Below are positions 13,173 through 64,000 of a stretch of 64,000 bases of DNA, piece after piece. Origin of the DNA: Eledone cirrhosa. Lineage: Eukaryota. A program made the translations under genes and the position numbers. Position 1 is the first letter of the stretch; the number at the start of each line of letters is the position of its first letter. The stretch covers positions 37,138,001 through 37,202,000 of the forward strand of contig OZ024740.1 in NCBI GenBank assembly GCA_964016885.1, written 5' to 3'. The notes beneath the pieces are model-generated. The model was not told the DNA's origin. It made no database searches and was given only the letters and a program-made list of their open reading frames with translations.

Positions 13173-13207
13173 GTTTAAAATAGGGTGGAAAAGATGGGAA
13201 AGACCAC

Positions 13208-15278: not shown

Positions 15279-15541
15279 GTTGTTTTTTGTTTAAAATGAA
15301 ATTTTGGGTACAAAACCCCAGTAACTGGTTATTTAACCCCGAAGGGCCAAATAACGGACAGAAAGACCCCTCTCACGAGAAGGAAGGTGTCTTTATCAAC
15401 AATTTGGTTCAAGTTTTAAACAATTTACAATTGTTTTAACGGTTAAAAATTACTATACCTTACAGAGCCGAGCCTCCGTCAACCATGGCATTCAATAATA
15501 ATAATAATAATAATAATAATGATGGTAATAAAACTAATAAT

Positions 15542-19450: not shown

Positions 19451-19579
19451 TTCTTTATTGGCCACAAAGGCTGACGTCAAGAAAAACATTACAGACGGCA
19501 CAGGACGGTACAGGACGGTTTTGTGCGTGTAAAGATTTTTATTATTTATATAAGAAAAGAAAAAGATAAAAGACATAGA

Positions 19580-19632
<53 letters not shown>

Positions 19633-19885
19633 AATAAAAATGAAAATTCAAACAATGAAAAATTGCCCAAATGGGGGGAACCTCCGAGGGTTACTCGTAG
19701 CGAAAACCACACAAAAGACCATGGCCACCCTGACCACCAGGGCAAGTGCCCTCTCTCAATTTTTCCATCTCTCAAACTACAGACGTATATTCAGAGTGGT
19801 CCCTTTCACTCGGACCATTCTCGCTACATTCACCCACCTTTCAACAATCTTGCTAGAAAGCAGCACTTGCCACTCCACCCTGATT
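19451..19885 (-). mobile_element. Tx1 subtype C 3' fragment (end of ORF2 + 3'UTR with internal (TA)n)
   Basis: Homologous to 50621-51025; tail-to-tail with A3 across AAT repeat. Confidence 0.92.
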
Positions 19886-43408: not shown

Positions 43409-43409
43409 A

Positions 43410-43465
<56 letters not shown>

Positions 43466-43466
<1 letters not shown>

Positions 43467-46400
43467 TTTTCTTTATTAACCACAAGGGTTCACATAAAGT
43501 AGACATTAAGGACAGTACAGGACAATACAGGACGGTACAAATGGGCATTTCTGCGTGTAAAAAAACAGAGGTTGAAATAAAATAACAAAGAAAAATTCCC
43601 CAATAGGGGGGAGACTTCCAAGGGACATTTGTGGAGAAAGCCCATTAAAAGACCACAGTGGCCCTGACCACCAGGGCAAGTGCCCTCTCCCAGTTTTCCA
43701 CCTTTAATTTACAGACACATACTCAGAGAAGGCCCATTCATTCGGGCCATACTTGCTTCTCTCACCCATCTTTCAACAAAATGCTGGGAAGAGAGCACTT
43801 CCCTCTCTACCCTGATTTTCCTTTTCAAATGAAATTTGAAAAAGTTAATCAGGGCATCACCGAAGAGGTAAGTGCTCGTCTTCAGCCCTTTCAAACGTGT
43901 CCACCATACTATCTCTTTCGCCATGGCCACCAGACAGATAAAAACTGCCTGCCCTTCCCGGCTAAAGGAAGGGGGCGGGGCAATCCTCACGATGGATTCA
44001 GCTGATAGCTGGATCCGTCCTACACGTGACAGCAGGTGTTCGACATAAACCCACAAGTCAGCCATGCTCGGACACTGGATGAGTGCGTGCAGGACGGTTT
44101 CGTCGCCCTGCGCGCATCTCGGACATGCCCGGCTGACGGCACCTCCATGCCTGTAGAGTTTATCCCGAACTGGCAAAGCTCCTCGGTAGCACTGCCAGGC
44201 CAGGGATTTCTGGAAGTTGTCCATAGGCCCCGGCCCGAAAGTCCTTCCGAAGAGATTGGCTAGTTGATTTTCGTCGACGCCTAGAGTTTCTCCAAGTACG
44301 TCGTCGCTCTTCCCCTCCACTAATCCCCTATAGAACGCCAAGGTGAAGTTTCCACCGATCACATTGCCCGATTGGTCGAGGGCTGTGAGCGCCTGAAAAC
44401 ATTCCAGTCTCCAAGCGCTCCCTTTCGGTCTTCGCTTGACCCAGGACTGCAGCTCCGTCAAGGAGACGAGCTGGGGAAAGACGCGTCTAGCAAACGGCGA
44501 CCACACCTGATCACCGTCGAGGAAGACGTGAAGATGTCGTAGCCTGAGCGCGTGTCTGCACATCATCAGCCACGGCATGCCCAGCCCTCCACGTAGCGGG
44601 TGTTGACAGCATATGGACCCCCTGACCATCGGAGCGCGTCCCTTCCCGAAAGAGCAAACGCTCCAGCGCAGTCAGGCGGGGCTTAGGACAAAGTACGACG
44701 GTCAGGCGGTAGTAGATGACGGACGCGATGTACGCGTTAGCCACATCCGCTCGACCTTTCAGGGATAGCTTCCTCTCGGCCTATTTCTGGGTGAGAGAAG
44801 CCACCCTGCTCGTCTCCTCGTCCCAGTTTTTGTCCGTCTGGATGTCCGGCCCGAACCAGACCCCTAGCAATTTAACCGGTCCGTCCGTCCAGCGCCCGAC
44901 GACGCTGTTGGACGGCATGGACCTGCCTCTCCAGGTGCCGAGCTGCAGGCCCACTGACTTTTCCTCGTTGATCATTGCTCCTGTCACCGCTTCGTATTCT
45001 CTTAGTGTAGTGCCGATCGCCTCAATGTGTTTGGCGTTCGACACCACTACGGTGACATCGTCCGCATATGCTGACACGGATCTTCCGCATCCTAGTTCGC
45101 ACGGGACCCCCCTCAACGTCTCCAGTTTGTGCAGTAATGGCTCGAGAGTCAATACGTACAAGAGGGACGAGAGGGGACATCCTTGGCGGACCGAGCGCAT
45201 GATGTTGAACGGTTCCGAAAGGTGACCGTTCACTCTCACCACAGAGCAGATGACGCTGTGCATGGCAGCGATCAAGCCTCTGAAGACGGGCCCAAAGCCA
45301 GCCGCTCTCAGGACTGCCGCTAGGTAACGATGGTCGACCCTATCGAAAGCTTTCGACTGATCTAAATTGAACAAGGACCCATCCGTGCCAGGTTCCCTAG
45401 CTACCCTCTCTACGATGTATCGCATGAGGTGGATGTTGTCGTGGATGGATCTGTCGGGAATGGCGCACGTCTGCGCCTCTTCCACCAGACCACCAATGAC
45501 AAGCGCCAACCTCTTTGCTAGCACCTTGCCCAAAATCTTGAACTCTTTGTTTAGCAGATTTATGGGCCTGAAATTATCTATGTTATTTCCCTTGTTCGGA
45601 TCCTTTCTCAGCAGCGGCACAGTTCCTCAGCTCACAGAGCTGGGAATTCTCCCGTTCTGTTGCCAGTTGCAGTAGACGTCCGCCAAGAGGCCTCCGAACA
45701 AGTCTGGCACCTGTACGTAAAGTTCATAGGGCAGACCATCAAAACCAGGCGATTTACCCCTTGTGCAGCCAGTTATTGCCTTCCGTACTTCAGCGGCTGT
45801 TATCGGCTTTTCGCAACACTCCGCCTTAGTGGCCGAGAGCCGCTGCAGTCCGTTGAGGTAGACACTAAAGTCCATACCTCGACCCGGCCCACCGCTGCCC
45901 CCGAACAGCTGTGCAAAGTGTCGCTGAAAAGCTTCACATATTTGCCCGGGATCGAGTAGCATGCGCCCGTCGTGGTCCACCAATGACCGGATCGTTGCTT
46001 TGTTGACACGACGCGCCTCCGCGACTCGGGCCCATTGAACGCAGCCCTGAAAACGCAGCCTTCGTGCTTTACATTGAAGAATTGGTCAAGGGCTAATTTC
46101 GCCGCAAGTACGTCGGTCGCAATGCCTTTGCTAAGCGCCTCGTCTAATTTTCTATCTAATTCTCCCTCTGCTCTATTTTTCTCTATTGCTAAAGCCTTAC
46201 TAAACCCAATGGACTCTATTCTAATTGCTCTTTTCAGAGCAAACCACCACTTGTTGTTGGCGATGGCCCCCGTCAACGCCCTCTTAACTAGTTTGCTAAA
46301 CCTGTCTCTGTAGGCCTTGCGCGCTGGTAAGGACGCGTTTAGCTTCCAGTAGCCGGGTCCTCGTCTATGAAGCCTATCTAAGTCAAGCACACAGATCACG

Positions 46401-49265
46401 AATTTGTGGTCTGTGTAGCTGACTATCTTGAATTGTGGACAGCCTATGCTAAACCCATCTATTTCCCTACAAAATACTCTATCTAGATATGATCTGGATG
46501 ACCCTATGAGATTTGTCCAAGTCCACATTGGCACATTCGGGAAATCCAATCGGTACCTGTCAGACAGTTCAAAACGCCTGAGCCGGTTGGTGAGGCTTTT
46601 GCACCCTCCTCCCCTATCCGCTGATCCCACACAGTCCCAGCGTGCATCTAAGATCCCGTTCCAGTCGCCCACTAACACTAAAGAGCGGGACGTTCCAAGA
46701 AAGGTCTCCAGACGCCGGAAGAAATCAGGCCGCACTGCTCCTGTCGGGGCATAGACGGCCACTAACTTGAAAGCTTGCTCGACTCCGCTGGTCACGTCTA
46801 GCAGCACCAACTTACCTTCTGGGTCCAGGAAGGTGGCCCGTGTGGCAAGATCCAAACCTCTCCGAAAAAGCACAGCAACTTCACCCCCCGATCCCGGACG
46901 GCTGGGAGATGCGTACACATCGTAGCCGCCGAAGATCGGTGCGAAGGCCTGTGCTTCGGAGATTCTGGTCTCGCTGATGGCCACTACATCTATGTTTAGT
47001 GACCTGAGGTCGTTGAGCAGGTGGCCCTGCTTCCATGACAACCCCAAGCCGCGCGCATTTATGCTGCCTATTCTGAGTGAGGTCATGTTGAAAAGGGGTG
47101 GAAAAGATGGGAAAGACCACTTACCTTACTTCCCGCAGAGGAAGGATGGTTTCTCCATCCCTTTTCACTTGATCGTCTGGTGAAGGGACCGTTGAATCGT
47201 CCCTTCGTCTGGTCGTCGGCTCTTCTGTGAGTATATCCGAATATACTCTCCGGTTGAGTGTCCCTCCTAGGTCTCTGAAATCACCAACTGCGTTGGGGAA
47301 TTTCGTTTTTATGTTCGTTGGTGTTTTGATTGGTGCTGGTATTATGTAGTCGTGCTGTGAAATGTCTGTGTGTTCAATTATGTAAGTCATTAGTTTCTTG
47401 TTGTGTGTATTTATTGCTGTACATTTGTTTTTGTGGGGGTGGGGTGTGGTTCTGCTATTTTCTTGTCGTTGTTGCTGGGTGTGTGTGTTTTGTTGTCGCC
47501 GGTGGTGATGGTGGTGCTAGTGTGGGTGGTGATGGTGTTGGTGGTGTTACTGCTGTAAGTCTCTTTGCAGTAGCCTTTACCCTTTTTTCGTTTCTTTCCT
47601 CCCTTTTCGAAGGCGACGATGCGCTGCTTCTGCGTTTGTCCTTCTTGCGACCTTTTGCCAGCCCTCTCCCACCTCACACTCCATGTCCGATTCTGTGAGG
47701 TCGGGGAGGGGTACCAGCTCCACTCTTTCACTTGTTGTTGTTGGTGATGTTTGCAGTGGAGTCTCTGTTGCAGCTGCAGTTGGTATTGCTGTTATTGTTG
47801 TTAATACTTCCACTGCTGCTGCTGTTCTTGATTTCCGTGGCGTGAGTATGTGTGCCACGGACCTATCATTCTTGGTTGCCGCCTGTCCTGTTGCTGGTGG
47901 CAGTGGAGCCGGTTTCGGAAGGAGGGGGGTTTTCTCCTTTCTCAGGGTCTTCTCATAGCAGAAGGCCCTGAGTTGAGTCTTCGATCCACAGCGTTTGCCC
48001 TCAACACATATGGACAGTTGAGTGCCGTTATCGAAGTCTATCACATCCGGGATAGCTTCGATGCACTCCTGGTTGGTTTGGATTAGCATCTCAATGGAGG
48101 TGCCGACCCAATCTTCTCTTACTTTTTTTTGTACTTGCAGTACAGTTGTTTTGTCCTCGATTCCGACGAGGACAGACGCAGCCAGCCAAGAAGGGGCCAT
48201 CCCGGAGGGGACGTGGGTCAGTTTGACCCTCACAATTTTTTGCCCGCAGTAGGAGGGCACCAACACCATTTCCTCGCTCCTTAGGGTCACTACGGATTGG
48301 GCCTTTGCCTCCTGGGGTGTGGCAAAAAGTACGTCTACGGTGGCATATTTTTTGCCTCGGGTGATGTGCGTTTTCCGCTGCCACACAGACCCCAAGGCTT
48401 TTTGTATTTGAGCCTCTGTGGCTCTTTCCACCCTACGGGATTTTGTACTTACTTGCAGATTGCTCGGTGTCCAATCTTTGTCACCATCTTCTTCGCTTCC
48501 TCTAATTCCTCATTTGTTATGAGGATTGTTTCCAAGTTTTTCGCAATACCTGCAAATGAGATTGGTTTTTCTCTGCTGTTGTTGTTGTCGTCAGAGCTGC
48601 TGTTACTTTTGTTGTTGCTGCAGATACTACGACTACTGCCTCCGCCGCTGTTGCTGTGGTTGTTGTTGGTGTTGCTGCTGCTAATGCTGTTGTTGTTTAT
48701 GCTGCTGGTGATGCTGTTGAGGCTGCTACTGCTGTTTTCATTGTCACTGTTGCTGTTGTTATTACGGCTGCTACTGCTATTATTCCTGACGTCAGACGAA
48801 TGAACTGGGTTTTTGTATTTCCCGCACACTTGTTTCGTCGCTGTCGTCGTCGTCGTGGAGAAACCTTGCACGCTTTGCACGAGACTTTTCTTTTCTTTCG
48901 TCGCTTGCGAAAGAGAAGGGAGGGAGAGAGACACATTTAAAGAAGGGAGGGAGAGAGACAATCTTCTCTCTGCTGTAGTGATGATTGAGGAAGAAGAAGA
49001 CGGAATGAGTGGGAGTGACCTATGAAATTTCTTTTTCGTAGCCATGTTGTTTTGTTTTTTTGTTTAAATTAAATATTGGGTACAAAACCCCAATAAGCAG
49101 TTATTTAACCCCGAAGGGCCAAATAACGGGCAGAAAGACCCCTCTCACGAGGAGGAGGGTGTTTTTGTCTACAAGTTCGTTAAAGTTTTCAACAATTTAC
49201 AATTGTTATAGTGTTCAAAATTTACAATACCTTACAGAGCCGAGCCTCCGTCAGCCATAGCATTC
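43466..49265 (-). mobile_element. Full-length Tx1 copy T2 (ORF1 type I 49045-47121, ORF2 47086-43709, both disrupted)
   Basis: Homologous to T1 end to end; AAT repeats on both sides. Confidence 0.93.
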
Positions 49266-49281
49266 AATAATAATAATAATA

Positions 49282-49502
49282 ATAAAGTCTATGACAAAAC
49301 CATTAATCACTTGTTCTACATGGATGACCTGAAACTATTTGCAAAAAATGATGAACTATTGCAAGGGCTATTATCCACTGTGGAGCAGTTCAGTGATGAC
49401 ATTAAAATGGAGTTTGGACTAGATAAATGCGCCAAAGCAACGTTCACCAGAGGAAAGCTGCTGAAGAGTTCAGACATTAATCCTGATCGGGGGAACGTGA
49501 TA
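49282..49502 (+). mobile_element. Family D copy D4, 220-bp RT fragment
   Basis: KTINHLFYMDDLKLFAKND...RGNVI matches D1 31030-31245; starts in (AAT)6. Confidence 0.92.
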
Positions 49503-50593
49503 GGAGGGCACCAACACCATTTCCTCGCTCCTTAGGGTCACTAAGGATTGAGCCTTTGCCTCCTGGGGTGTGGCAAAAAGCACGTCCACGGTGGCATATT
49601 TCTTGCCTCGGGTGATATGCGTTTTCAGCTGCAACACAGACTTTAAGGCTTTTTGTATTTGAGCCTCTGTGGCTCTTTCAACCCTACGGGAGTTTGTGCT
49701 TACTGTACGGTACGTGACCGAACAGTGCTGTTGGGTTTCGAAAAATTGTTCGGCTGCCTTTCAGATTGCTCGGTGTCCGGTTTTCGTCACCATCTTTGCT
49801 TCCTGTAATTCCTCATTTGTTATAAGGATGGTTTCCAGGTTCTTTGCAATATCTGCAAACGAGATTGGTTTTTCTTTGTTGTTGTTGTTGTTGTTGTTGC
49901 TTCTGCTGGTACTACGCCTGCCGCCGCCGCTGTTGCTATGGTTGTTGTTGTTGCTGCTGCTGCTGCTTGTGTTGTTGTTGCTGTTGCTGCTAATGCTGTT
50001 GGTGTTTATGCTGCTGCCGGTGCTGTTGCTGCTGCTACTGTTGTTTTCCTTGTCATTGCTGCTGTTATTACGGCTGCTACTGGTATTATTCATGACGTCA
50101 GACGAATGAAATGGGTTTCCGTATTTACCGCACACATGTTTCGTCGTTGTCATCGTCGTGGAGAAATGTTCCACGTTTTGCACGTGCTCTTGGAAACTAT
50201 CAGAAACTATATTTTTCTTTTTCTTTACTGGCGTCGCTTGCGAAAGAGAAGGGAGGGGGAGAGACACATTTAGAGAAGGGAGATAGAGAGACAACCTTCT
50301 CTCTGGTGTAGTGACGATTGAGGAAGAAGAAGACGGAATGAGTGGGAGTGACTTGTGAAAATTCTTTTTTGTAGCCATGTTTTTTTTTGGTTTAAAATAA
50401 ATATTGGGCACAAAACCCCAATAAGCGGTTATTTAACCCCGAAGGGCCAAACAACGGGCAGAAAGACTCCTCTCACGAGGAGGAGGGTGTTTTTGTCTAC
50501 AATTTTGTTAAAGTTTTAAACAATTTACAATTGTTATAGCGGTTAAAATTTACTATAACTTACAGAGCCGAGCCTCCGTCAACCATGGCATTC
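49501..50593 (-). mobile_element. Tx1 copy T3, 5'UTR + first part of a type I-variant ORF1 (ATG 50378)
   Basis: Same 5' end GAATGCCATGGTTGACGG as T1; MATKKNFHKSLPLIP; 3' portion missing. Confidence 0.9.
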
Positions 50594-50915
50594 AATAATA
50601 ATAATAATAATAATAATAATGATTTCTTTATTGGCCACAAGGGCTGACATCAAGAAAAACATTACAGACGGTACAGGACGGTACGATGTGGGTTTTGTGC
50701 GTGTAAATATTTTTATTATTTATATAAGAAAAAAAAGGACATAGAAACATATATATATATATATATAAACAATAAAAATGAAAATTGAAACAATGAAAAA
50801 TTCCCCAATAGGGGGGAAACCTCCGAGGGTTACCCGTGGCGAAAACCACACAAAAGACCACGGCCACCCTGACCACCAGGGCAAGCGCCCTCTCTCAATT
50901 TTTCCATCTCTCAAA

Positions 50916-53900
50916 CTACAGACGTATATTCAGAGTGGTCCCGTTCACTCGGACCATTCTCGCTACATTCACCCACCTTTCAACAAACTTGCTAGAAGGC
51001 AGCACTTGCCTCTCCAATCTGATTTTCCTCTTCAAGTAAAACTTGAAAAAGTTAATTAGGGATTCGCCGAAGAGGAAAGTGTCTATCTTTAACCCTTTTA
51101 ACCTTGTCCACCACACAATCTCTTTCGCCATGGCCTCCAGGCAGATGAAAACCGCCTGCCCTTCCTCCTCGAAGGAAGACAGCGAGACCATCTGCACCAA
51201 TGGACTCAGTCGACAACCGGATCAGTCCTACACGCGACAGCAACTGTTCGACATAGCTCCACAAGTCAGCAATGCTCGGGCACTGAACGAGTGCGTGCAC
51301 GACGGTTTCGTCGCTCTGCGCGCATCTCGGACAGGCTCGGCTGACGGCACTTCCGTGCCTGTAGAGCTTATCTCGAACCGGCAGCGTCCCCGGAAGCACT
51401 GCCAGGCCAGGGATTTTTGGAAGTTATCCATAGGCCCCGGGCTGAAAGTTCTCCGGAAGAGAGCAAACAGCTGATCTTCTTCGACGCCCAGGATCTCTCC
51501 GAGAACGTCGTCGCTCTTCCCCTCCACTAGTCCTCTATAGAACGCCGAGGTGGATGTTCCACCGATACTGGTGCCCAGCTGGCAGAGGGCAGTGAGCGCC
51601 TGGAGACATTCCAGTTTCCAAGCGTTATACCTCGGTCTTTTTCTGGCCCAGGACTGCAGCTCCGTCAAGGAGACGAGCTGTGGGAAAACGTGACTGGCGA
51701 ACGGCGACCACACCTGTTCACCATCAAGGAAGCACCAGAGATGTCGCAGCCTCAGCGCATGTTTGCGCATCATCAGCCATGGCATGTCCGGTCCTCCACG
51801 CAACGGGTGTTGACAGCAGATGGATCGTCTGACCATGGGAGCGCGTCCCTTCCACAAAAAGCGGAAGAGGAGGCGCTCCATTTTGCTGAGAGTTGGGCTG
51901 GAGCAAAGGACGACGGTGAGGCGGTAGCAGATGATGGATGCGATGTACGCATTCGCCACCTCCGCCCGGCCTTTCAGGGACAGCTTCCTCTCAGCCCATT
52001 TCTGGGTGAGGGAGCCCACCCTGCTCATCACCTCGTTCCAGTTTTTCTCCATCTGGAGGTCCGGTCCGAACCAGACCCCGAGCAATTTAACCAGTCCGTC
52101 CGTCCAACGCCCCACAACGCTGTCGGACGGCATGGACTTGCCTCTCCACGTGCCTAACTGCAAGCCCACCGACTTTTCCGGGTTTATCTTTGCTGCTGTC
52201 ACCGCTTCGTATTCCTTGAGAGCGGTGCCGAGCATCTGGACGTGTCTGGTGCTCGACACCACCACGGTGACGTCGTCAGCGTAAGCCGACTCGGATTTCC
52301 CGCATCTTAGTTCGCGTGGGACGCCCCTCATCGCCCCCAGTTTGTGCAGTAACGGCTCGAGAGCCAATACGTACAAGAGGGACGAGAGGGGACAACCCTG
52401 GCGGACTGAGCGCATGATGCTGAACGGCTGCGACAGGTGACCGTTCACCCTCACAACTGAGCAGATGTCGCTGTACATTGCTGCGATCCAAGCCCTGAAA
52501 ACGGGCCTGAAACCGGCTACCTCGAGGACCGCCGCCAGGTACCGATGGTCGACCCTATCGAATGCTTTGGATTGATCCAAGTTGATCAGGGCCCCACCCG
52601 TGCCGGGTTCCTTAACGACCCTCTCTATGATGTATCGCATGAGGTGGAGGTTGTCGTGTATGGATCTGTCCGGAATGGCGCATGTCTGCGTCTCTCCCAC
52701 CAGACCACCAACGACAAGCGCCAACCTCGTTGCTAACACCTTGGCCAAAATCTTGAACTCTGCGTTTAGCAGAGTTATGGGCCGGAAATTATCGATGAAA
52801 TCCCCCTTGTTCGGGTCTTTTCTCAGCAGCGCCACTGTTCCCCGGCACACAAACCGGGAATGCTCCCGTTCTGCTGCCAGTTGCAGTAGACGTCTGCCAA
52901 GAGGTCACCGAACAAGTCTGGCATAAATGCATAAAGCTCGTAGGGCAGACCATCTAAACCTGGTGATTTACCTCTTGTGCAGTTAGCCATCGCTTCCCGT
53001 ATTTCACCGACTGTTATTGGCCTTTTCGCAACACTGTGCTGCGGTCGTCGGGAGCCGAAGCAGTCCGTCGAGGTATGCACTGAAGTCCATGTCCCGATCC
53101 GGGCTGCCGCCGCTCCCGAACAGTTCAGCAAAGTGCTGCTGAAAAGCTTCACACATCCGCTCGGGTTCGAGCATCACGCACCCGTTTTGGTCAGACAAAG
53201 ACCGAATTGTGGCTTTATTGCCACGTCGCGCCTCTGCCACCCGGACCCATTGGACGGCTGTGTCCCCTCGTGTTTCAGAGCACGCGCTCTAGCTCTGACA
53301 ATGCAGCCTTCGTGTTTTGCGTTGAAGAATTGGTCGAGTGCCAATCTCGCCGCAAGCACGTCGGTTGCGATGCCTGTCCTAAACGCCTCTTCTAGCTTTC
53401 TGACTAGCTCTCCCTCTACTCTATTTTCCTCTATCACTACTCCTTTGCTAAACCTAATCGACTCTACTTTAATTGCCCTTTTCAGGGCGAACCACCACCT
53501 TTTGTTGACGCACGCTCCCGTCAACGCCCGCTTAACAAATACGTTACTCCGGTCTCTGTAGGCTTTGCTCGCCGGGAAAGACGCGTTCAGCTTCCAGTAA
53601 CCAGGCCCTTGTCTATGAAGTCTGTCTATGTCGATCTCACAGATCACAAATTTGTGGTCTGTGTAGTCGACTATTTTAAATTGTGGACACTTATACTAGC
53701 CTTATTTACTTCTCTGCAGAATACCCTATCGAGATACGATCTGGATGACCCGATGCGGTTTGTCCATGTCCACATTGGCACATTCGGGTGATCCAGTCGA
53801 TACCTGTTAGACAGTTCAAAACGCCTGAGCAGGTTGGTGAGGCTCTTGCACCCTCCTCCCCTATCCACTAGCCCCACACGATCCCAGCGTGCAGCCAAGA

Positions 53901-54307
53901 TACCGTTCCAGTCGCCCACTAACACTAAAGAGCGGGACGTTCCAAGAAAGGTCTCTAGACGTCTGAAGAAATCTGGCCGTCCTGCCCCTGTTGGGGCGTA
54001 GACGTCTACTAGCCTGAAAGTATTTGCCTTCGCTGCCGGTCACGTCCAGCACCACCGACTTACCTTCTGGGTCTAGGAAGATGGCCCGTATCGCGAGATC
54101 CAAGCCTCTCCGAAAAAGGACAGCAACATCTCCCCCCGATCCTGGACGGCTGGGAGGTGCGTATACATCGTAGCCGCCGAAGATCGGTGCGAAGGCTTGT
54201 GCTTCGGAGGTTCTGTTTAATGACCTGAGGTCGTTGAGCAGGTGACCCTGCTTCCAAGATGACCCCAGGCCACGTGCATTTATACTGCCTATTCTGAGTA
54301 CGGCCAT
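50916..54307 (-). pseudogene. T4 ORF2, APE-RT with multiple frameshifts and deletions
   Basis: MAVLRIGSINARG start; fragments 53861, 53671, 53174, 53004, 52823, 51228, 51052, 50916. Confidence 0.9.
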
Positions 54308-54339
54308 GTTGGACGAGAAGCGGGGCAAATGAGAAAGGG

Positions 54340-56436
54340 TCACTTACCTTGTTCGTGTGGTGAAGGGACAGTAGAACCGTCCCTTTCGCTGGTCATGGGT
54401 GATTCCAAGAGGATGTCAGTGTATATCCTCTTGGTAACCAACCCTCTGAAGTCTCCAACTGCGTTGGGGGATTTTTGTTTTAAAGGTTTGTACTGTTCTA
54501 TTGAGATTTCGATGATGCTTATGTTTGTCGGGAGAGTTCTTGGTCTTGGTGGGGTGTAGTAGTTTTTTTCTGTGATGTCTGTGTGCTGCTTTATATATTG
54601 TATGGGTTCTTTTTTTGCCATGTTTATGGCTGTGTACTTTTTGGGGGGAGGGGGGATTTTGTTGCCGTTTTCTTCTTGTTGCTGTTTGGTGTGTGTGTCT
54701 TGTTGTGTTTGCGTTGTTGGTGTTTTTGGTGATGCTGGTGGTGGTGGTGTGGTTGTTGTTGTCAGTGGTGCTTGTGGTGGTGATGGTGGTGGTGTTGCTG
54801 CAAGTTTCCTTGCTGCCTTTACCCCTCTTTGTATGCCTTCGCTTTTGGAGGGTGAATCTAAGGGTTTTTTTCTTTTTTCTTTTTTGTGGCTGACCGTTTG
54901 CCACTTCACTCCCGCCTCAAACTCCATGTCGGATTCTGTGGCGTCTTGGAGGGGTATGTGCTCCACGGCTGTTGGTGGTGGTAGTGGAGCCCTCTTCGGC
55001 AATTTTGTTCCTGGTGTAGCTACTTCGAATGTAGCTATTGGTGTTGCCGCCACTGATGATGCTGCTTTAATTGTCCGTGGTCTTGGTACGGGTGCTACAG
55101 ACGTTGCCCTCCTACTCACCGTGGGAGGGGCTTCTTCGTTTGTTGCCTGCCCTGCTCTTGGTAGCAGCGGACCAGGTATTGGAAGGAGAGGGGCCTTCTT
55201 CGCTGTCTTCTGCGGGCAAAAGGCGCTGAGGTGACCCTTCGACCCACAGAGATAACATTTTGGCCGTCTTCCTTCTACACTTATAGGGAGTTGGAGTCCT
55301 TCCTCGATGTCTATGATATCGGGGATAGCCTCGATACATTCCTGGTCAGTTTGTATAAGCATTTGCATGCCTATACCTGACCAGTTCTCTCTCCCTATTT
55401 TTACTACTTGCAGCATGGTCGTCCTGTTCTCGATTTCAGCAAGGACAGACGCGGCCAGCCAAGGTATGGGCACGTCGGGTGGGATCTGGGTTACTTTGAG
55501 CCTCACAATTTTCTGCCCGCAGTAGGAGGGCACCAAGACTAACTCCTCACTCTTTAGGGTTTCCAAAGAGTGAGACTTTGCTTCCTGGGGGGTGGCGAAA
55601 AGTACGTCTACTGTGGCGTACTTTCTGCCTCGGGTGATGTGGGTTTTGCGTGCCCAGACGCACCCCAAGGCCTTTTGGATTTGAGCGTCCGTGGCTCTCT
55701 CCACTCGATATGAGATTTTGCTTACGGTGCTGTAAGTCACCGTTCGTAGCTGCTGGTCCTTGAAAAAATCGGGTGGAGGTTTCAGGGAGACTCTATTTGC
55801 GCGTCTTGTCACCATAGCCCTTGCGACTGCCATCTCCTCCTCTGTGACTAACACTGTCTCGATATTTCGGGCGACACCTGGAAAAGAAGTGGTCCCTTTT
55901 TCAGCAGCACAACTATTGCTGCCGTTATTGGTCTTACTGATGGTGCTGAGGTCGCTATTACAGATATCGGTGTCATTGTCGTTCTTTTCGTTGGAACAGT
56001 TGTTGGTGTTGTTGTTGTTTTCGTTGATAGTGTTGCTGTTGTTACTGTTATTGTGGTTGTTGTTATTATTGTTGTTTTTGTTGATACTGTTCCTACTATT
56101 ATTGTTGTTGTGGCTGTTGTTATTGTCATTGTTATTGTCGTTCTCGACCTTACCGCTGTTATTTTTGTTATTGTCGTCCTCGACTTTACCGCTGTTATTT
56201 TTGTTGTTGCTGGTGTTATTGATGGTGTTGTTGTTGGTGTTGTTGGTGGTGTTATTGTTGGTGTTGTTTGTGTTAGAAATATTTGTTAATTTTAAATCTG
56301 TAACAATCTTCTTTTCCTTTGTAATATTTTCGTTTATATTTATCTCCGCTGGAACGCTGTCTTGTTGACATGCTGATAAAGTCTCCCTCTCTCTGTGTTG
56401 TCTGACAGCGCTCTCTCTGTTTCTTGTGTTATCCAT
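54340..56436 (-). CDS. T4 ORF1, intact 698 aa from MDNTRN
   Basis: Poly-Asn N-terminus, KTHITRGRKYATVDVLF block, knuckle CYLCGSKGHLSAFC, Pro/Thr tail; first ATG of the 54340-56484 frame is at 56436. Confidence 0.88.
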   Translation of the reverse strand: MDNTRNRESAVRQHRERETLSACQQDSVPAEININENITKEKKIVTDLKLTNISNTNNTNNNTTNNTNNNTINNTSNNKNNSGKVEDDNNKNNSGKVENDNNNDNNNSHNNNNSRNSINKNNNNNNNHNNSNNSNTINENNNNTNNCSNEKNDNDTDICNSDLSTISKTNNGSNSCAAEKGTTSFPGVARNIETVLVTEEEMAVARAMVTRRANRVSLKPPPDFFKDQQLRTVTYSTVSKISYRVERATDAQIQKALGCVWARKTHITRGRKYATVDVLFATPQEAKSHSLETLKSEELVLVPSYCGQKIVRLKVTQIPPDVPIPWLAASVLAEIENRTTMLQVVKIGRENWSGIGMQMLIQTDQECIEAIPDIIDIEEGLQLPISVEGRRPKCYLCGSKGHLSAFCPQKTAKKAPLLPIPGPLLPRAGQATNEEAPPTVSRRATSVAPVPRPRTIKAASSVAATPIATFEVATPGTKLPKRAPLPPPTAVEHIPLQDATESDMEFEAGVKWQTVSHKKEKRKKPLDSPSKSEGIQRGVKAARKLAATPPPSPPQAPLTTTTTPPPPASPKTPTTQTQQDTHTKQQQEENGNKIPPPPKKYTAINMAKKEPIQYIKQHTDITEKNYYTPPRPRTLPTNISIIEISIEQYKPLKQKSPNAVGDFRGLVTKRIYTDILLESPMTSERDGSTVPSPHEQGK

Positions 56437-56652
56437 GTTGAAATTTTTCAAGAAGATATTTTTACACAAATACGAATACGGCACCCCGTATAGGGGTGCC
56501 GTATTATTTACGAGTGAACCCCTGTATTAGGTGGGTCACTTCTTTTAAACTTTTATCAAATTTAAAACTTGAATAAAAGGTTTAGAACGGTTGAAAACGA
56601 GGTAAAACGTTGAAAAAAAACTAGAGGCGATAAGAAGCGTGGCTTCACCAAC

Positions 56653-56713
<61 letters not shown>

Positions 56714-56956
56714 TTTTCTTTATTAACCACAAGGGTTTACATAAAGTAGACATTAAGGACAGTACAGGACAATACAGGACGGTACAAATGGGCATTTCTG
56801 CGCGTAAAAAAACAGAGGTTGAAATAAAATAACAAAGGAAAATTCCCCAATAGGGGGGGAGACTTCCGAGGGACATTTGTGGTGAAAGCCCATTAAAAGA
56901 CCACAGTGGCCCTGACCACCAGGGCAAGTGCCCTCTCCCAGTTTTCCACCTTTAAT

Positions 56957-59900
56957 TTACAGACACATACTCAGAGAAGGCCCATTCATTCGGGCCATAC
57001 TTGCTTCTCTCACCCATCTTTCAACAAAATGCTGGGAAGAGAGCATTTCCCTCTCTACCCTGATTTTCCTTTTCAAATGAAATTTGAAAAAGGTAATCAG
57101 GGCATCACCGAAGAGGTAAGTGCTCGTCTTCAGCCCTTTCAAACGTGTCCACCATACTATCTCTTTCGCCATGGCCACCAGACAGATAAAAACTGCCTGC
57201 CCTTCCCTGCTAAAGGAAGGGGGCGGGGCAATCCTCACGATGGACTCAGCTGATAGCCGGATCCGTCCTACACGTGACAGCAGGTGTTCGACATAAACCC
57301 ACAAGTCAGCAATGCTCGGACACTGGACGAGTGCGTGCAGGACGGTTTCGTCGCCCTGCGCGCATCTCGGACATGCCCGGCTGACGGCACCTCCATGCCT
57401 GTAGAGTTTATCCCGAACTGGCAAGGCTCCTCGGTAGCACTGCCAGGCCAGAGATTTCTGGAAGTTGTCCATAGGCCCCGGCCCGAAAGTTCTTCCGAAG
57501 AGATTGGCTAGTTGATTTTCGTCGACGCCTAGAGTTTCTCCAAGTACGTCGTCGCTCTTCCCCTCCACTAATCCCCTATAGAACGCCAAGGTGGAGTTTC
57601 CACCGATCACATTGCCCGATTGGTCGAGGGCTGTGAGCGCCTGAAGACATTCCAGTCTCCAAGCGCTCCCTCTCGGTCTTCGCTTGACCCAGGACTGCAG
57701 CTCCGTCAAGGAGACGAGCTGGGGAAAAACGTGTCTAACAAACGGCGACCACACCTGATCACCGTCGAGGAAGAGGTGGAGATGTCGTAGCCTGAGCGCG
57801 TGCCTGCGCATCATCTGCCATGGCATGCCCAGCCCTCCACGTAGCGGGTGTTGACAGCAGATCGACCGCCTGACCATCGGAGCGCGTCCCTTCCACAAGA
57901 AGCGAAAGAGCAAACGCTCCAGCGCAGTCAGGCGGGGCTTAGGACAAGGTACGACGGTCAGGCGGTAGTAGATGACGGATGTGATGTACGCATTCGCCAC
58001 CTCCGCTCGACCTTTCAGGGAGAGCTTCCTCTCGGCCAATTTCTGGGTGAGAGAAGCCACCCTGCTCGTCACCTCGTCCCAGTTTTTGTCCGTCTGGAGG
58101 TCTGGACCGAACCAGACCCCTAGCAATTTAACCGGTCCGTCCGTCCAGCGCCCGACGACGCTGTTGGACGGCATGGACCTGCCTCTCCAGGTGCCGAGCT
58201 GCAGGCCCACTGACTTTTCCTGGTTGATCATTGCTCCTGTCACCGCTTCGTATTCTCTTAGTGTAGTGCCGATCGCCTCGATGTGTTTGGCGTTCGACAC
58301 CACTACGGTGACATCGTCGGCATATGCTGACACGGATCTTCCGCATCCTAGTTCGCGCGGGACCCCCCTCAACGTCTCCAGTTTGTGCAGTAATGCCTCG
58401 AGAGTCAATACGTACAATAGGGACGAGAGGGGACATCCTTGGCGGACCGAGCGCATGATGTTGAACGGTTCCGAAAGGTGACCGTTCACTCTCACTACAG
58501 AGCAGATGTCGCTGTGCATGGCAGCGATCCAGCCTCTGAAGACGGGCCCAAAGCCAGCCGCCCTCAGGACTGCCGCTAGGTAACGATGGTCGACCCTATC
58601 GAAGGCTTTCGACTGATCTAAATTGATCAAAGACCCACCCGTGCCAGGTTCCTTAGCTACCCTCTCTACGATGTATCGCATGAGGTGGAGGTTGTCGTGG
58701 ATGGATCTGTCGGGAATGGCGCATGTCTGTGCCTCTCCCACCAGACCACCAACGACAAGCGCCAACCTCTTTGCTAGCACCTTGGCCAAAATCTTGAACT
58801 CTGTGTTTAGCAGAGTTATGGGCCTAAAATTATCTATGTTATCCCCCTTGTTCGGATCCTTTCTCAGCAGCGCCACCGCTCCTCGGCTCACAGAGCTGGG
58901 AATTCTCCCGTTCTGTTGCCAGTTGCAGTAGACGTCCGCCAAGAGGGCTCCGAACAAGTTTGGCATTTGTACGTAAAGTTCATAGGGCAGACCATCAAAA
59001 CCAGGCGATTTACCCCTTGTGCAACTAGTCATTGCATCCCGTACTTCAGCGGTTGTTATCGGCTTTTCGCAACACTCCGCCTCTGTGGCCGAAAGCCGCG
59101 GCAGTCCGTCGAGGTAGACACTAAAGTCCATCCCTCGATCCGGCCCGCCACTGCCCCCGAACAGTTGAGCGAAGTGTCGCTGAAAAGCTTCACACATTTG
59201 CCCGGGATCGAGTAGCATGCGCCCGTCGTGGTCCACCAAAGACCAGATCGTGGCTTTGTTGCCACGACGCGCCTCCGCCACTCGGGCCCGTTGAACGGCT
59301 TTCGTCCCCTCGTGTCTGAGAGCACGCACCCTAGCTCTGACAACGCAGCCTTCGTGCTTTGCATTGAAGAATTGGTCAAGGGCCAATTTCGCCGCAAGTA
59401 CGTCGGTCGCGATGCCTTTACTAAGCGCCTCATCTAATTTTCTAACTAATTCTCCCTCTGCTCTATTTTTCTCTATTGCTAAAGTCTTACTAAACCTAAT
59501 GGACTCTATTCTAATTGCTCTTTTCAGAGCAAACCACCACTTGTTGTTGACGATGGCCCCCGTCAACGCCCACTTAACTAGTTCGCTAATACGGTCTCTG
59601 TAAGCCTTGCGCGCTGGTAAGGACGCGTTCAGCTTCCAGTAGCCGGGTACTCGTCTATGAAGCCTATCTAAGTCAAGCACACAGATCACGAATTTGTGGT
59701 CCGTGTAGCTGACTATCTTGAATTGTGGACAGCCTATGCTAGACCTATCTATTTCCCTACAAAATACTCTATCTAGATATGATCTGGATGACCCTATGCG
59801 ATTTGTCCAAGTCCACATTGGTACATTCGGGAAATCCATTCGGTACCTGTCAGACAGTTCAAAACGTCTGAGCAGGTTGGTGAGACTCTTGCACCCTCCT

Positions 59901-60376
59901 TCCCTATCCACTAATCCCACACAATCCCAGCGTGCATCTAAGATCCCGTTCCAGTCGCCCACTAACACTAAAGAGCGGGACGTTCCAAGAAAGGTCTCCA
60001 GACGCTGGAAGAAATCAGGCCGCCCTGCTCCTGTCGGGGCATAGACGGCCACTAACCTGAAAGCTTGCCCGTCTCCGCTGGTCACGTCCAGCACCACCAA
60101 CTTATCTTCTGGGTCCAGGAAGATGGCCCGTATGGCAAGATCCAAACCTCTCCGAAAAAGCACAGCAACTCCTCCCCCCGATCCCGGACGGCTGGGAGAT
60201 GCGTACACATCGTAGCCGCCGAAGATCGGTGCGAAAGCCTGTGCTTCGGAGATTCTGGTCTCGCTGATGGCCACTACATCTATGTTTAGTGACCTGAGGT
60301 CGTTGAGCAGGTGGCCCTGCTTCCATGACGACCCCAAGCCACGCGCATTTATGCTGCCTATTCTGAGTGAGGTCAT
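56957..60376 (-). CDS. T5 ORF2, intact 1139-aa APE endonuclease / RT / CCHC protein
   Basis: All APE and RT motifs listed for T1, uninterrupted. Confidence 0.95.
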   Translation of the reverse strand: MTSLRIGSINARGLGSSWKQGHLLNDLRSLNIDVVAISETRISEAQAFAPIFGGYDVYASPSRPGSGGGVAVLFRRGLDLAIRAIFLDPEDKLVVLDVTSGDGQAFRLVAVYAPTGAGRPDFFQRLETFLGTSRSLVLVGDWNGILDARWDCVGLVDREGGCKSLTNLLRRFELSDRYRMDFPNVPMWTWTNRIGSSRSYLDRVFCREIDRSSIGCPQFKIVSYTDHKFVICVLDLDRLHRRVPGYWKLNASLPARKAYRDRISELVKWALTGAIVNNKWWFALKRAIRIESIRFSKTLAIEKNRAEGELVRKLDEALSKGIATDVLAAKLALDQFFNAKHEGCVVRARVRALRHEGTKAVQRARVAEARRGNKATIWSLVDHDGRMLLDPGQMCEAFQRHFAQLFGGSGGPDRGMDFSVYLDGLPRLSATEAECCEKPITTAEVRDAMTSCTRGKSPGFDGLPYELYVQMPNLFGALLADVYCNWQQNGRIPSSVSRGAVALLRKDPNKGDNIDNFRPITLLNTEFKILAKVLAKRLALVVGGLVGEAQTCAIPDRSIHDNLHLMRYIVERVAKEPGTGGSLINLDQSKAFDRVDHRYLAAVLRAAGFGPVFRGWIAAMHSDICSVVRVNGHLSEPFNIMRSVRQGCPLSSLLYVLTLEALLHKLETLRGVPRELGCGRSVSAYADDVTVVVSNAKHIEAIGTTLREYEAVTGAMINQEKSVGLQLGTWRGRSMPSNSVVGRWTDGPVKLLGVWFGPDLQTDKNWDEVTSRVASLTQKLAERKLSLKGRAEVANAYITSVIYYRLTVVPCPKPRLTALERLLFRFLWKGRAPMVRRSICCQHPLRGGLGMPWQMMRRHALRLRHLHLFLDGDQVWSPFVRHVFPQLVSLTELQSWVKRRPRGSAWRLECLQALTALDQSGNVIGGNSTLAFYRGLVEGKSDDVLGETLGVDENQLANLFGRTFGPGPMDNFQKSLAWQCYRGALPVRDKLYRHGGAVSRACPRCAQGDETVLHALVQCPSIADLWVYVEHLLSRVGRIRLSAESIVRIAPPPSFSREGQAVFICLVAMAKEIVWWTRLKGLKTSTYLFGDALITFFKFHLKRKIRVEREMLSSQHFVERWVREASMARMNGPSLSMCL

Positions 60377-60410
60377 GTTGAAAAGGAGTGGAAAAGATGG
60401 GAAAGACCAC

Positions 60411-62409
60411 TTACCTTACTTCTCGTACGGGAATGACGGTTTTTCCATCCTTTTCACTGCTTGTGGCCTCCTCAGGAAGGATGTCCTTATAAATCCTCCT
60501 GGAGAGTGCTTGTCGGAAGTCTCCGATGTCTTTGGGGAATTTTTGTTTTAGTGTCATGTACGTTTTCTGTGTGATGCGAGTGATTTGTATGTGTTGAGGT
60601 GGTGTGAATTTTGGGGTTGTTGTGTAGTCTTTTTCTGTGATGCTGGTGTTGTGTTGGATGTAGTGTAATAATTGCTTGTTGTTCAAATTTAATGCTGTGT
60701 AGTGTGTAGTGTGTATCGTTTTGGTTGTTTTGTTTTGTTTACGTTTGTTGTGGGTTTGTTTCTGTTTCGCATTTTGGTGACTTTTGTGGTGTAGGTGATG
60801 GTGGTGTTGGGGTTAATGATGGTGATGGTGTTGGTGTTTGGGTTGATGGGGTTGGTGATGCTGGTGTGGATGGTGGCATATCTATCCTAACTTTTTTGTT
60901 TCTTAATTTATTTGTTTCCCTCTGTATTTTGTTTTGGAGGGGGAAGGAAGAGAATTTTTTTCTTTTTTGGTTTCTTTTTTTTTTCCGGATATCGTTTCCC
61001 ACTCCTCGTCGTCACAATCTGTCTCCAGTTGTGATAGGCCGGGGAGTGGAAAATCCTCCACAGCCGTTAGTTTTGGTTGTGGCGTGGTGGATGGTGTAGG
61101 CGCTGGTGCTAGTTCTGAAGCGTTGGGTGGTGGTGGTGTTGGTTTTGGTGGTGGTGGTGGTGGTGTTGGTTTTGCTACTGTTGCTGGGGTTGTTGCTGTT
61201 ATAGTTGCTTCTGTTGTTGCTGCTACAGTTGTTGCTTCCATCTCTGCTACTGGTGGTGTTGATGGTTGTGTCACTGGGGTGGGTAGGAGAGGTGGCTTCA
61301 ACCTTTTAGCCTGAGGGCAGAAAGCCCTTAGGTGGGTTCCTTCACCACAAACGACACACCTAGGTCTTCTGCCCTCGACAATTACCGTGAGGTGGCTGCC
61401 GTCAGTGAGGTCTATTACCTCTGGGATCTCCTCAATGCTTTTTTGGTCCGCTTGGATCAGGAGCTCCATCCCAGATCCGGATCAGTTCTCCTGCTTTTCT
61501 TTTGCTATTGCTATTATTTTCGTGTTGGCTTCGATGCCGGCGAGGACGGCCGCTATTAGCCAGGGAATTTCGATGGCCGGGTGAACGTGGGTCACCCTGA
61601 TCTTTACGAGTCTCTGGCCACAATAGCTTGGGACGAGTGTGAAGTCGTCACTTCTTAATGGGGCTATGGAGTGTTCTCTAGCCTCCTCTGGTGTTTCAAA
61701 GAACACGTCCATGGTTCCATACTTTTGCCCACGTCTGATGTGGGTTTTTCTTGCCCACACATGTCCCAAAGCTTTTTGGATTTGGGACTCGGATGCCCGT
61801 TCCACTCGGCGCGATTTTACATTTATTGTTCTATACGACACGGTGCATAGGCGCCGATGCTCCATATTATTAGGTGGGGGGGGGGCTGACCCTGTACCCA
61901 TCTTTCTTTACCATTTGTTTGGCATTTTCTAAATCCTCCTGAGCTACCCTAAATGCTTCGAACTGTTTTGCTACTCTGGCGAAACTGAGGGTCGGTTTTA
62001 TAATGTCATTGTTGTTGTTGTTGCTATCGTTATTTGTGTTAATATTAAATTTAGTTTCAGTTGTGGTGGTGGTGACGTCAGTCGTCTTTGGTGAGGAAGA
62101 GTTCATTTTGCTTGATTTCATTTCGACATCACGAGTTAATTTATTTTTTTCTTCTTTTGTTTCTGTTGTCGCGGTGGTGGTGGGGGTGGTGGTTGTCGCG
62201 GTGGTGGTGGTGGTGGAGGCTTTAACACCTGCAGTCATTGGTAATGGCGGGAAATGAATGTCTGCCTGAGACAAATTTAAAATATTGCTACTGCTTATAT
62301 TTTTTTTTGTGTTGGCAAACGTAGTAACATTTACAATGGTGGTGTCGGTGTGAGGTGTTAATTTGTGAGGAAGGCTTTCAGCTGCTTGTTGCAGAGGTGA
62401 ATTAGCCAT
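60411..62409 (-). pseudogene. T5 ORF1 type III, disrupted
   Basis: MANSPLQQ start; KTHIRRGQKYGTMDVFF; knuckle CVVCGEGTHLRAFC; breaks at G run ~61880, TGA at 61482, T run ~60978 and near 60740. Confidence 0.85.
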
Positions 62410-62616
62410 TTTTTTCAATGAAATTTTTTGATAATAATAAAAGTTTAAATTTTGGGCACAAGGCCCCAATCTTTTTGGGTGTCCTTTTCGGAAAACAATG
62501 TATGTGCGCTTATAAACAGTTAACAATAAAATTATCCATAAATGACAATTTTTAACAAACGGAAATAACAAACCTTTGCGGAGCTCACGATGATACGATT
62601 TTCTACGTAGGTCGCC

Positions 62617-62673
<57 letters not shown>

Positions 62674-64000
62674 TTCTTTATTAACCACAAGGGTTTACAT
62701 AAAGTAAACATTAAGGACAGTGCAGGACAATACAGGACGGTACAAATGGGCATTTCTGCGTGTAAAAAACAAAAACAGAGGATGTAACAAAAAATAACAA
62801 TGAAAAATTCCGCAATAGGGGGGAGACTTCGGAGGGACATTTGTGGAGAAAGCCCAGTAAAAGGCCACAATGACCCTGACCACCAAGGCAAGTGCCCTCT
62901 CCCAGTTTTCCACCTTTAATTTACAGATATATACTCAGAGTAGGCCCATTCACTCGGGCCATTCTTGCTTCTCTCACCCATCTTTCAACAAAATGCTGGG
63001 AAGAGAGCACTTCCCTCTCTACTCTGATTTTCCTTTTCAAATGAAATTTGAAAAAGTCAATCAGAGCATCACCGAAGAGGTAAGTGCTCGTCTTCAGCCC
63101 TTTCAAACGTGTCCACCATACTATCTCTTTCGCCATGGCCACCAGACAGATAAAAACTGCCTGCCCTTCCCGGCTAAAGGGGGAGGGCGGGGCAATCCTC
63201 ACGATGGACTCAGATGATAGCCGGATCCGTCCTAAACGCGACAGCAGGTGTTCGACATGAACCCACAAGTCAGCAATTTTCGGACACTGGACGAGTGCGT
63301 GCAAGACGGTTTCGTCGCCCTGCGCGCATCTCGGACATGCCCGGCTGACGGCACCTCCATGCCTGTAGAGTTTATCCCGAACTGACAAGGTTCCTCGGTA
63401 GCACTGCCAGGCCAGAGATTTCTGGAAGTTGTCCATAGGCCCTGGCCCGAAAGTTCTTCCGAAGAGATTGGCTAGTTGATTTTCGTCGACGCCTAGAGTT
63501 TCCCCCAGTACGTCGTCGCTCTTCCCCTCCACTAATCCTCTATAGAACGCCGAGGTGGAGTTTCCACCGACCAGATCGCCCAATTGGTCGAGGGCTGTGA
63601 GCGCCTGAAGACATTCCAGTCTCCAGGCGCTCCTTCTCGGTCTTCGCTTGACCCAGGACTGCAGCTCCGTCAAGGAAACGAGCTGGGGAAATACGTGTCT
63701 AGCAAACGGCGACCACACCTGATCACCGTCGAGGAAGAGGTGGAGATGTCGTAGCCTAAGCGCGTGCCTGCGCATCATCAGCCACGGCATGCCCAGCCCT
63801 CCACGTAGCGGGTGTTGACAACAGATGGACCGCCTGATCATCGGAGCGCGTCCCTTCCACAAAAAGCGAAAGAGCAAACGCTCCAGCGCAGTCAAGCGAG
63901 GCTTAGGACAAGGTACGACGGTCAGGCGTTAGCAGATGACAGACGCGATGTACGCGTTAGCCACCTCCGCTCGACCTTTCAGGGGTAGCTTCCTCTCCGC
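62674..64000 (-). mobile_element. Tx1 copy T6, 3' end (continues past window)
   Basis: ORF 62921-63895 matches ORF2 C-terminus; 3'UTR most like T1. Confidence 0.93.

Follow-up and report, generated by a model that had tools for sequence, protein, structure and literature searches.

Retrotransposons of the L1 group in a 64,000-nucleotide stretch of the Eledone cirrhosa genome (assembly GCA_964016885.1, contig OZ024740.1, positions 37,138,001 to 37,202,000; hereafter the window) are mosaics, in which diverged lineages of the 5' untranslated region (UTR) and first open reading frame (ORF1) stand before similar cassettes of ORF2 and 3'UTR. Seven related elements, T1 to T7 (Table 1), were found by comparing the window with itself and reading its minus strand. 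Their 5' modules are of type A in T1 and T2, type B in T5 and type C in T4. Recombination as such is very probably the source of the mosaic, and at least two exchanges between lineages are likely. Of the possible histories we favour, a shade more cautiously, one in which resident copies repeatedly had their 3' parts exchanged for young cassettes through recombination during reverse transcription.

Unequal divergence of ORF1 and ORF2

An earlier note on this DNA, made by eye, described the ORF2 proteins of T1, T2 and T5 as nearly identical and the ORF1 of T5 as only partly similar to the others, and both descriptions hold. Over ORF2 and the 3'UTR, identity is 95.5% for T1/T5 and 94.6% for T2/T5, against about 81% for T4/T5, while the ORF1 core of T5 differs from that of T1 at 78 of 174 residues. 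The mismatch extends to synonymous positions. At four-fold degenerate sites T1 and T5 differ at 32 of 43 positions in the ORF1 core (74%) and at 39 of 546 in ORF2 (7%; p=6e-24). T4, which does carry a third 5' module as the note had proposed, shows the same imbalance against T5 (36/46 versus 135/453, p=2e-10) and a smaller one against T1 (29/63 versus 138/460, p=0.014). Synonymous sites of ORF1 are not intrinsically faster, since the control pair T1/T2, with similar rates in ORF1 and ORF2, differs at only 4 of 76 four-fold sites of the core.

Allowing the ORF1 core and ORF2 separate branch lengths raises the log-likelihood (lnL) from -9751.8 to -9569.7 for four additional parameters (2dlnL 364, 4 degrees of freedom), and a shared set is rejected; the branch leading to T5 measures 0.49 in ORF1 and 0.015 in ORF2. 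With five outgroup proteins, the ORF2 tree places T4 outside T1+T2+T5 at 100/100. The signals on the two sides of the breakpoint are incongruent. A tree of the APE endonuclease region alone resolved nothing. For T5 against T1/T2 one exchange is certain. A second exchange is likely because ORF1 is older than ORF2 in the pair T1/T4 as well.

The composite end of ORF1

Identity between T5 and T1/T2 resumes in the last codons of ORF1, as had been noticed, 42-43 nt before a GTAAGT motif. The ORF1 tails of T1 and T2 are longer than those of T4 or T5, and their two parts have different relatives. The first 45 nt match the last 45 nt of T4 at 38 (T1) and 37 (T2) positions, against 21 for T5; over the 45 ungapped positions that follow, T1 and T2 agree with T5 at 30 and 32, against 22 for T4. 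The part without a counterpart in T4 and the part without a counterpart in T5 meet at a single point (13255 in T1, 47168 in T2), which is the exact site of the splice-donor motif in T4 and follows AG in T5. Judged by this alignment, the tail likely records an offset crossover that linked a T4-related 5' module to a T5-type tail. A single out-of-register join explains the pattern directly, and T1 and T2 would then also be recombinant and, being two copies, amplified.

Breakpoints at the start of ORF1 and in distal ORF2

The 5'UTR and ORF1 do not form one fixed module, because the relationships among T1, T2 and T3 shift at the start of ORF1. Sites uniting T1 with T2 make up 7 of 35 in the 5'UTR and 94 of 107 in ORF1 (p=3e-15, three-state sites left out), and T1 and T2 themselves differ at 28 of 205 UTR sites against 17 of 842 sites in the 5' part of ORF1.

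At the opposite end, 22 of 23 four-taxon informative sites in the last 1.2 kb set T1+T6 against T2+T5. This is the split the earlier note had read from its diagnostic variants, RVGRI in T2 and T5 and RLGRI in T1 and T6, with two UTR 12-mers at 43566/56813 and 9621/62776. It is confined, however, to the last 0.9-1.2 kb or so; upstream of this tract the closest pair is T1/T5 (3.6%, against 5.0% for T2/T5). Divergence between T2 and T5 falls from 5.0% to 1.8% after about 57600 (MaxChi p=0.0005, best of 12 tests). Changes private to T2, mostly non-synonymous upstream, affect 73 of 909 codons there and 8 of 206 downstream (p=0.037), a reduction which suggests that the 3' end of T2 was replaced after insertion. 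T6 is uninformative on the ORF1 type because its 5' module lies outside the window.

Breakpoints therefore map to the 3' end of ORF1, to the 5'UTR/ORF1 boundary and to distal ORF2. The proposal that recombination took place near the splice-donor motif is strongly supported for the first of these, but does not cover the other two. The aid that the note ascribed to head-to-tail arrays is plausible.

Homogenisation of the targeting nuclease, proposed in the same note from an apparent closeness of the T4 APE region to type B, was rejected. Against T5, T4 differs at 26 of 102 four-fold sites in APE and at 109 of 351 in the rest of ORF2 (0.25 versus 0.31, p=0.33); against T1 the counts are 24/104 and 114/356 (p=0.09), and the lowest synonymous window of the T4 comparison lies in the reverse transcriptase (RT; 2/32). 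The closeness exists in amino acids only, with 28 of 229 residues differing in APE and 187 of 894 in the rest of ORF2 (p=0.003), and is no greater than that of the RT core (22/159, p=0.65). Ordinary purifying selection explains it.

The 5' modules as diverged homologues

All ORF1s align over the core, although they hold long low-complexity stretches. The five 5'UTRs measure 207-217 nt, and a motif of about 26 nt common to T5 and to T1, T2 and T3 scores above 300 of 300 shuffles in each of the three pairs; the earlier description of the T5 5'UTR as unrelated was too strong. The 5'UTR of T4 gave no alignment with those of T1, T2 or T5. In T1, T2, T3 and T4 the 3' half of the UTR folds into a series of hairpins (z -2.8 to -5.8), whereas the 3' 121 nt of the T5 5'UTR showed no significant folding (z +0.8). 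The UTR evidence points to deep homology, and the modules may best be regarded as diverged homologues. In this they resemble the L1 elements of fish and frogs more closely than the promoter replacements of mammals: there too, in the portion of the report available, UTRs are short, length and motifs are conserved across divergent families and promoters are not replaced by non-homologous ones (PMC5381506), whereas in T1, T2 and T3 the UTR still changes partner with ORF1.

The hairpin series recurs in A- and C-type 5'UTRs on the minus strand (15279-15400, 49046-49170, 50379-50500, 56437-56560) despite their unalignable sequences, and the middle hairpin of the A type has a UUCG loop.

Microsatellite flanks

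Perfect (AAT)n makes up 0.8% of the window, yet 11 of the 13 element ends inside it adjoin such arrays, and in this one window 8 of 13 arrays touch an element end. The two ends without (AAT)n are the deleted end of T3 and the truncated end of T7. T6, T5, T4 and T3 follow one another head to tail as direct repeats with only (ATT)n between them. All five intact 5' ends (15493, 49265, 50593, 56652, 62616) start with G directly after (ATT)n, a base that is possibly cap-derived.

Plus-strand elements in the window also end in (AAT)n: four at 62-3889, 6821-8753, 15867-19426 and 39588-43414, and a second family at 30807-32751, 35853-37601 and 37597-39493. From their RT and their C-terminal CCHC, RHD and PD-D-K motifs we take them to be of the Dong/R4 group and not of RTE, since the C-terminal motifs fit Dong/R4. 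T2 and T7 adjoin the tails of such elements in opposite orientation, so that two unrelated nucleases appear to use one microsatellite.

Microsatellite-targeting Tx1 elements have been described, namely Kibi in (TC)n, Koshi in (TTC)n and crocodilian families in (TTCC)n/(TTTC)n, and (TAA)n has been reported for Dong (PMC4494074, PMC3812793). T1 to T7 share with these Tx1 elements the APE-RT type of ORF2, the microsatellite on both flanks and tandem insertion. They differ in their cephalopod host and in the repeat unit, (ATT/AAT)n, which in the available text of these reports is given for Dong only (PMC4494074, PMC3812793). An APE-type element is hence added to the (AAT)n niche.

A proposed mechanism of 3' replacement

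Under the account we favour, the endonuclease would cut (ATT)n, the repeat that likewise borders every resident copy on its 3' side. Because the target is the resident's own flank, a new complementary DNA (cDNA) primed in the (ATT)n tail would start directly behind a homologue; it could then anneal or switch to the resident, giving a product with the resident 5' module and the incoming 3' cassette. Exchanges between distant lineages would gather at the end of ORF1 because this would be the most 5' point at which the lineages are still alike enough to join, and the donor motif would mark the boundary without needing to cause the exchange. In the most probable order of events, the ORF1s of A and C would have diverged first; ORF2 would then have become common to the B and C lineages, and a C-related 5' module would later have been joined out of register to a B-type tail and ORF2, producing T1 and T2. 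A passage through cDNA is favoured by the gradient from unalignable 5' ends to shared 3' ends, by the fresher 3' end of T2 and by the 2-nt microhomology at the junction; for this particular route we consider the chances evenly balanced.

Several observations weigh against this account or narrow it. No datum separates cDNA-coupled exchange from conversion at the DNA level. The A/C mismatch between T1 and T4 is marginal, its p of 0.014 becoming 0.027 when set against the spread among ORF2 regions, and one exchange may suffice. Private deletions of 14-62 nt with microhomology at their borders occur often among the copies, so the long ORF1 tail may instead be ancestral, with T4 having lost 43 nt and T5 having crossed in. 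Among T1, T2 and T5, the last segment before the donor motif (r2) varies at 7-9 of about 44 nt, above the level of ORF2; a single event does not explain this, and more than one is suggested. The 44 sites among T1, T2 and T5 that can be polarised by T4 show no significant clustering (p=0.33). The module types of T4 and T5 are represented by one copy each, and either could be a post-insertion or assembly chimera. A single chimera formed after insertion, the case the earlier note had set against its own reading, is possible for T5 and is a fair reading of the 3' end of T2.

Alternative explanations

The strongest competitor of 3' replacement is ectopic recombination or gene conversion between array neighbours at the DNA level, after insertion, in which case the hybrids need not replicate as families. 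As a general explanation it seems unlikely, but for T2 conversion within the array is a real rival. In its favour, T6-T5-T4-T3 are direct repeats parted only by (ATT)n, T3 displays a large local deletion, and T2 and T5, 13 kb apart, have a common 3' tract with reduced decay in T2. The composite tail, on the other hand, is common to T1 and T2, which lie 30 kb apart with different flanks and so point to its spread by transposition. Derived 3' sites are likewise common to T1+T6 and to T2+T5, the T5 junction joins lineages only about 60% alike upstream, a poor substrate for homologous recombination, and the Dong-like copies of the same window give a weak mosaic signal or none (p=0.27, 0.08, 0.02).

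Splicing is a further candidate, and an improbable one, either as the maker of the chimeras or as a regulator of ORF2. The consensus MAG/GTRAGT stands at the end of ORF1, perfect in T2, T4 and T5 and matched at 8 of 9 positions in T1, where chance would give about 0.001 per 60 nt. It is followed by a pyrimidine tract, the ORF2 ATG and, within 52-54 nt, the first AG. If the donor works, removal of a 52-54 nt intron would delete the ORF1 stop and the ORF2 ATG and create an in-frame, Gag-Pol-like fusion of ORF1 and ORF2, and in read-through transcripts of an array, splicing from an upstream donor to an AG of the following element, with later retrotransposition, might produce new combinations such as T1/T2. 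The motif is kept between T4 and T5 despite a shifted stop codon and a changed pyrimidine spacer, the T1/T2 junction falls exactly at the T4 donor and after AG in T5, and donor and first AG are both in phase 2, and hence in frame, in T1, T2 and T5. In T4, by contrast, the donor is in phase 1 and out of frame with the first AG. All four copies retain the ORF2 ATG, which also occupies the corresponding position in four related proteins (P0159, P0160, P0161, P0009; 40-68% identity). The pyrimidine tract of the would-be acceptor in the T5 ORF1 tail is poor, and no more than two of the cassettes with the motif are independent. A second perfect donor consensus within APE codons of T2 (46815) and T4 (54063), on the minus strand, indicates that such motifs can arise from codons, and the 2-nt AG microhomology would give the same T1/T2 junction. 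Spliced human L1 insertions (SpIREs) are mostly dead ends (PMC5860796). They do provide a precedent for the use of splice sites inside L1-group RNA and for retrotransposition of the product; those described in the available part of that report are deletions within the 5'UTR or between 5'UTR and ORF1, with neither ORF1-ORF2 fusions nor splicing between elements (PMC5860796). Were the splicing explanation true, target specificity would build arrays that breed new families by splicing, and ORF2 would have a new way of being expressed and LINE (long interspersed element) chimeras a new way of being made.

The spacer between ORF1 and ORF2 has no special fold (z -0.06, 0.27). Protein searches for a fusion of ORF1 and ORF2 gave 8 matches of 626-1994 aa, 4 under 626 aa and 150 listed representatives; no ORF1 stands before APE in the close matches retrieved, which carries little weight since the database holds no close copies of the T5 ORF2. 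A distant relative at 30% identity, P0096 (1514 aa), combines ZCCHC3-type RNA-binding domains, CCHC, APE and RT in one chain, as either a true fusion or a gene-model join. P0003, a tectonic-3-like gene model from Octopus sinensis, departs from its APE-derived piece where the second donor stands, a weak hint that such sites are used or predicted. A T-rich tract ending in CAG occurs in the 3'UTR of T1 (9607), T2 (43554) and T5 (56801) and at the matching place in T6, and is absent from T4; paired with the donor at the end of ORF1, it could yield an ORF1-only mRNA. Our literature search, which covered few subscription papers and no Repbase, found no account of these elements or of an intron between ORF1 and ORF2; the families may already be present in Repbase or in the repeat library of PMC13282606.

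An assembly artefact from collapsed or mis-joined copies is very unlikely: multi-kilobase repeats at 92-96% identity and one-base homopolymer indels typical of long-read consensus error might invite it, but the same composite tail is present in two distinct copies, substitutions and flanks differ from copy to copy, and the short segment holding the T5 junction has variants peculiar to it and is a copy of neither T1 nor T2. Fast evolution of ORF1 and the 5'UTR next to a conserved ORF2, with no recombination at all, could draw on the low-complexity stretches of ORF1 and the modest A/C mismatch but is scarcely credible, given synonymous divergence of T5 of 0.74 (saturated) in ORF1 and 0.07 in ORF2 with T1/T2 equal in both, and rate variation alone is refuted for T5 by the rejection of proportional branch lengths (182 log units, 4 parameters).

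Relation to known mosaic elements

The mosaic is real and well supported, and is a new case of a known process. In mouse L1, three routes to mosaic families are described and young 3' ends recruit older 5' ends (PMC3600994); for horse L1, one event of this kind is reported (PMC5872511); and shuffling of ORF1 has been described in CR1/L2 (PMC4120745). As in the window, co-existing mouse lineages such as L1MdTf and L1MdGf exchange 5'UTR-ORF1 and ORF2 parts, and their breakpoints lie within ORF1, close to where ORF2 begins and where ORF2 meets the 3'UTR (PMC3600994). Compared with the mouse families as the available text presents them, the ORF1 partners of T1 to T5 are far more diverged (core 55% identical in amino acids, synonymous sites saturated), their ORF1 is of the RRM/CCHC type, their short UTRs are homologous and not new promoters, and the copies stand in tandem in a microsatellite (PMC3600994). 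CR1/L2 elements likewise combine a tree-like ORF2 with a reticulate ORF1 and a proposed junction between the two; there, as far as the text at hand goes, ORF1 types are swapped between clades (PMC4120745), whereas in the window homologous ORF1s of a single clade are exchanged, and so recently that the swap can be mapped to the nucleotide.

The case extends family recombination of the L1 kind to a cephalopod, in what is likely a Tx1 lineage, and to far more distant ORF1 partners. Because every copy carries the target as its own flank on the 3' side, a genome-wide count of copies could make the system one that tells apart the long-discussed routes to mosaic L1 families, namely DNA recombination, annealing of cDNA to a resident and template switching.

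Classification

T1 to T7 are L1-group retrotransposons, probably of the Tx1 type. They have two ORFs with a short spacer and an AATAAA near the 3' end, and their 3' ends run AATAAAGAA(A) into (ATT)n without poly(A). The ORF2 of T5 matches the Pfam families Exo_endo_phos (3e-14), RVT_1 (1e-28) and zf-RVT (9e-8), a catalytic YADD is visible, and the best match in PDB is human L1 ORF2p (E=1e-49, residues 5-852), with R2 proteins at 1e-19 or weaker. In the ORF1 core, zf-CCHC scores E=9e-4, just under the Pfam cut-off, and the Atlas neighbours are CCHC and ZCCHC3-RBD clusters at 0.90-0.93. The structure model of the core (pLDDT 61) has ferredoxin/RRM-like matches only (Z 5.4-6.5), and a Foldseek search with it returned nothing at E<=0.001. 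A protein search with the T4 ORF1 gave 0 matches among 7999 candidates. The zf-CCHC match, the Atlas neighbours and the structure model lend modest support to an RRM-like domain before a CCHC knuckle, with which they are consistent, though not decisively. In the accessible part of its report, this type of ORF1 is described as fitting Tx1 (PMC5203782). The only named homologue is an Octopus sinensis gene model with an APE piece 65% identical, and L1-Tx1 and Dong-R4 are listed among the recently active LINEs of O. vulgaris (PMC13282606).

Other features of the window

The coordinates of the elements, their parts and the intervening arrays are collected in Table 1.

Table 1. Retrotransposon copies, their landmarks and adjoining (AAT)n arrays, in window coordinates
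Feature	Position	Strand	Description
T1	9519..15493	-	Full-length, module A, composite ORF1 tail; outside the coordinates of the earlier note
T1 landmarks		-	Tail junction 13255; donor 13211; ORF2 ATG 13172
T7	19451..19885	-	5'-truncated copy; 3' end of T4 type (86.6% to T4)
(AAT)17	43415..43465		Common to T2 3' end and tail of oppositely oriented Dong/R4-like element
T2	43466..49265	-	Full-length, module A, decayed; ORF1 ATG 49045, ORF2 ATG 47086
T2 3' tract	43466..44400 (boundary about 44340-44465)	-	MaxChi p=0.0005
T2 donor-to-first-AG interval	47073..47124	-	52 nt; phase 2 to phase 2
T2 composite ORF1 tail	47125..47212	-	T4-like 45 nt (47168-47212), then T5-like 43 nt (47125-47167)
(AAT)6	49266..49283		At T2 5' end
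T3	49501..50593	-	5' 1.1 kb of A-like element; 3' part missing; joins Dong/R4-like fragment 49282-49509
(AAT)9	50594..50620		Between T4 3' end and T3 5' end
T4	50621..56652	-	Full-length, divergent, module C
T4 donor-to-first-AG interval	54294..54347	-	54 nt; donor phase 1, out of frame with first AG
T4 ORF2	ATG 54307	-	7 frameshifting indels
T4 ORF1	54340-56436	-	Open, 698 aa
T4 ORF1 core	55195..55896	-	Predicted ferredoxin/RRM-like domain, then CCHC knuckle
(AAT)20	56653..56712		Between T5 3' end and T4 5' end
T5	56713..62616	-	Full-length, probably L1/Tx1-type, module B; ORF2 intact, ORF1 interrupted by stops and frameshifts
T5 ORF2	56957..60376	-	1139 aa; APE endonuclease, RT, C-terminal zinc-binding domain
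T5 GTAAGT...CTCAG interval	60363..60414	-	52 nt; perfect donor consensus, pyrimidine tract, ORF2 ATG, first AG; candidate intron
T5 ORF1 (module B)	60411..62409	-	Synonymous sites saturated versus modules A and C
T5 segment r2	60415..60456	-	Last 42 nt before donor motif; similarity to T1/T2 resumes here
T5 5'UTR	62410..62616	-	207 nt; one short motif in common with A-type UTRs
(AAT)19	62617..62673		Between T6 3' end and T5 5' end
T6	62674..64000	-	3' part only, runs off window end; 3' type as in T1

Just upstream of T1, at about 15737-15776 on the minus strand, a bare 3' tip of the T4 type is followed by degenerate (ATT)n and a SINE-like repeat. Where the 3' part of T3 meets the Dong-like fragment (49282-49509) the two overlap by about 9 nt, likely through a deletion between two tail-to-tail elements. 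A SINE-like short dispersed repeat, partly tandem, lies in or beside AAT tracts at 3914-4262, 8875-9048 and 15536-15720. A search of Rfam gave no match. Degenerate ORFs occupy 20553-22448 and 23618-24823 on the plus strand, of which the ORF at 21480 has a weak RT match (E=7e-4) and the others none of note. A fragment of a hAT transposase dimerisation domain is found at 29188-29694 on the plus strand (E=2e-8), and positions 26708-27341 form a 634-nt self-complementary stretch with 91% identity, similar to a miniature inverted-repeat (MITE) or foldback element.

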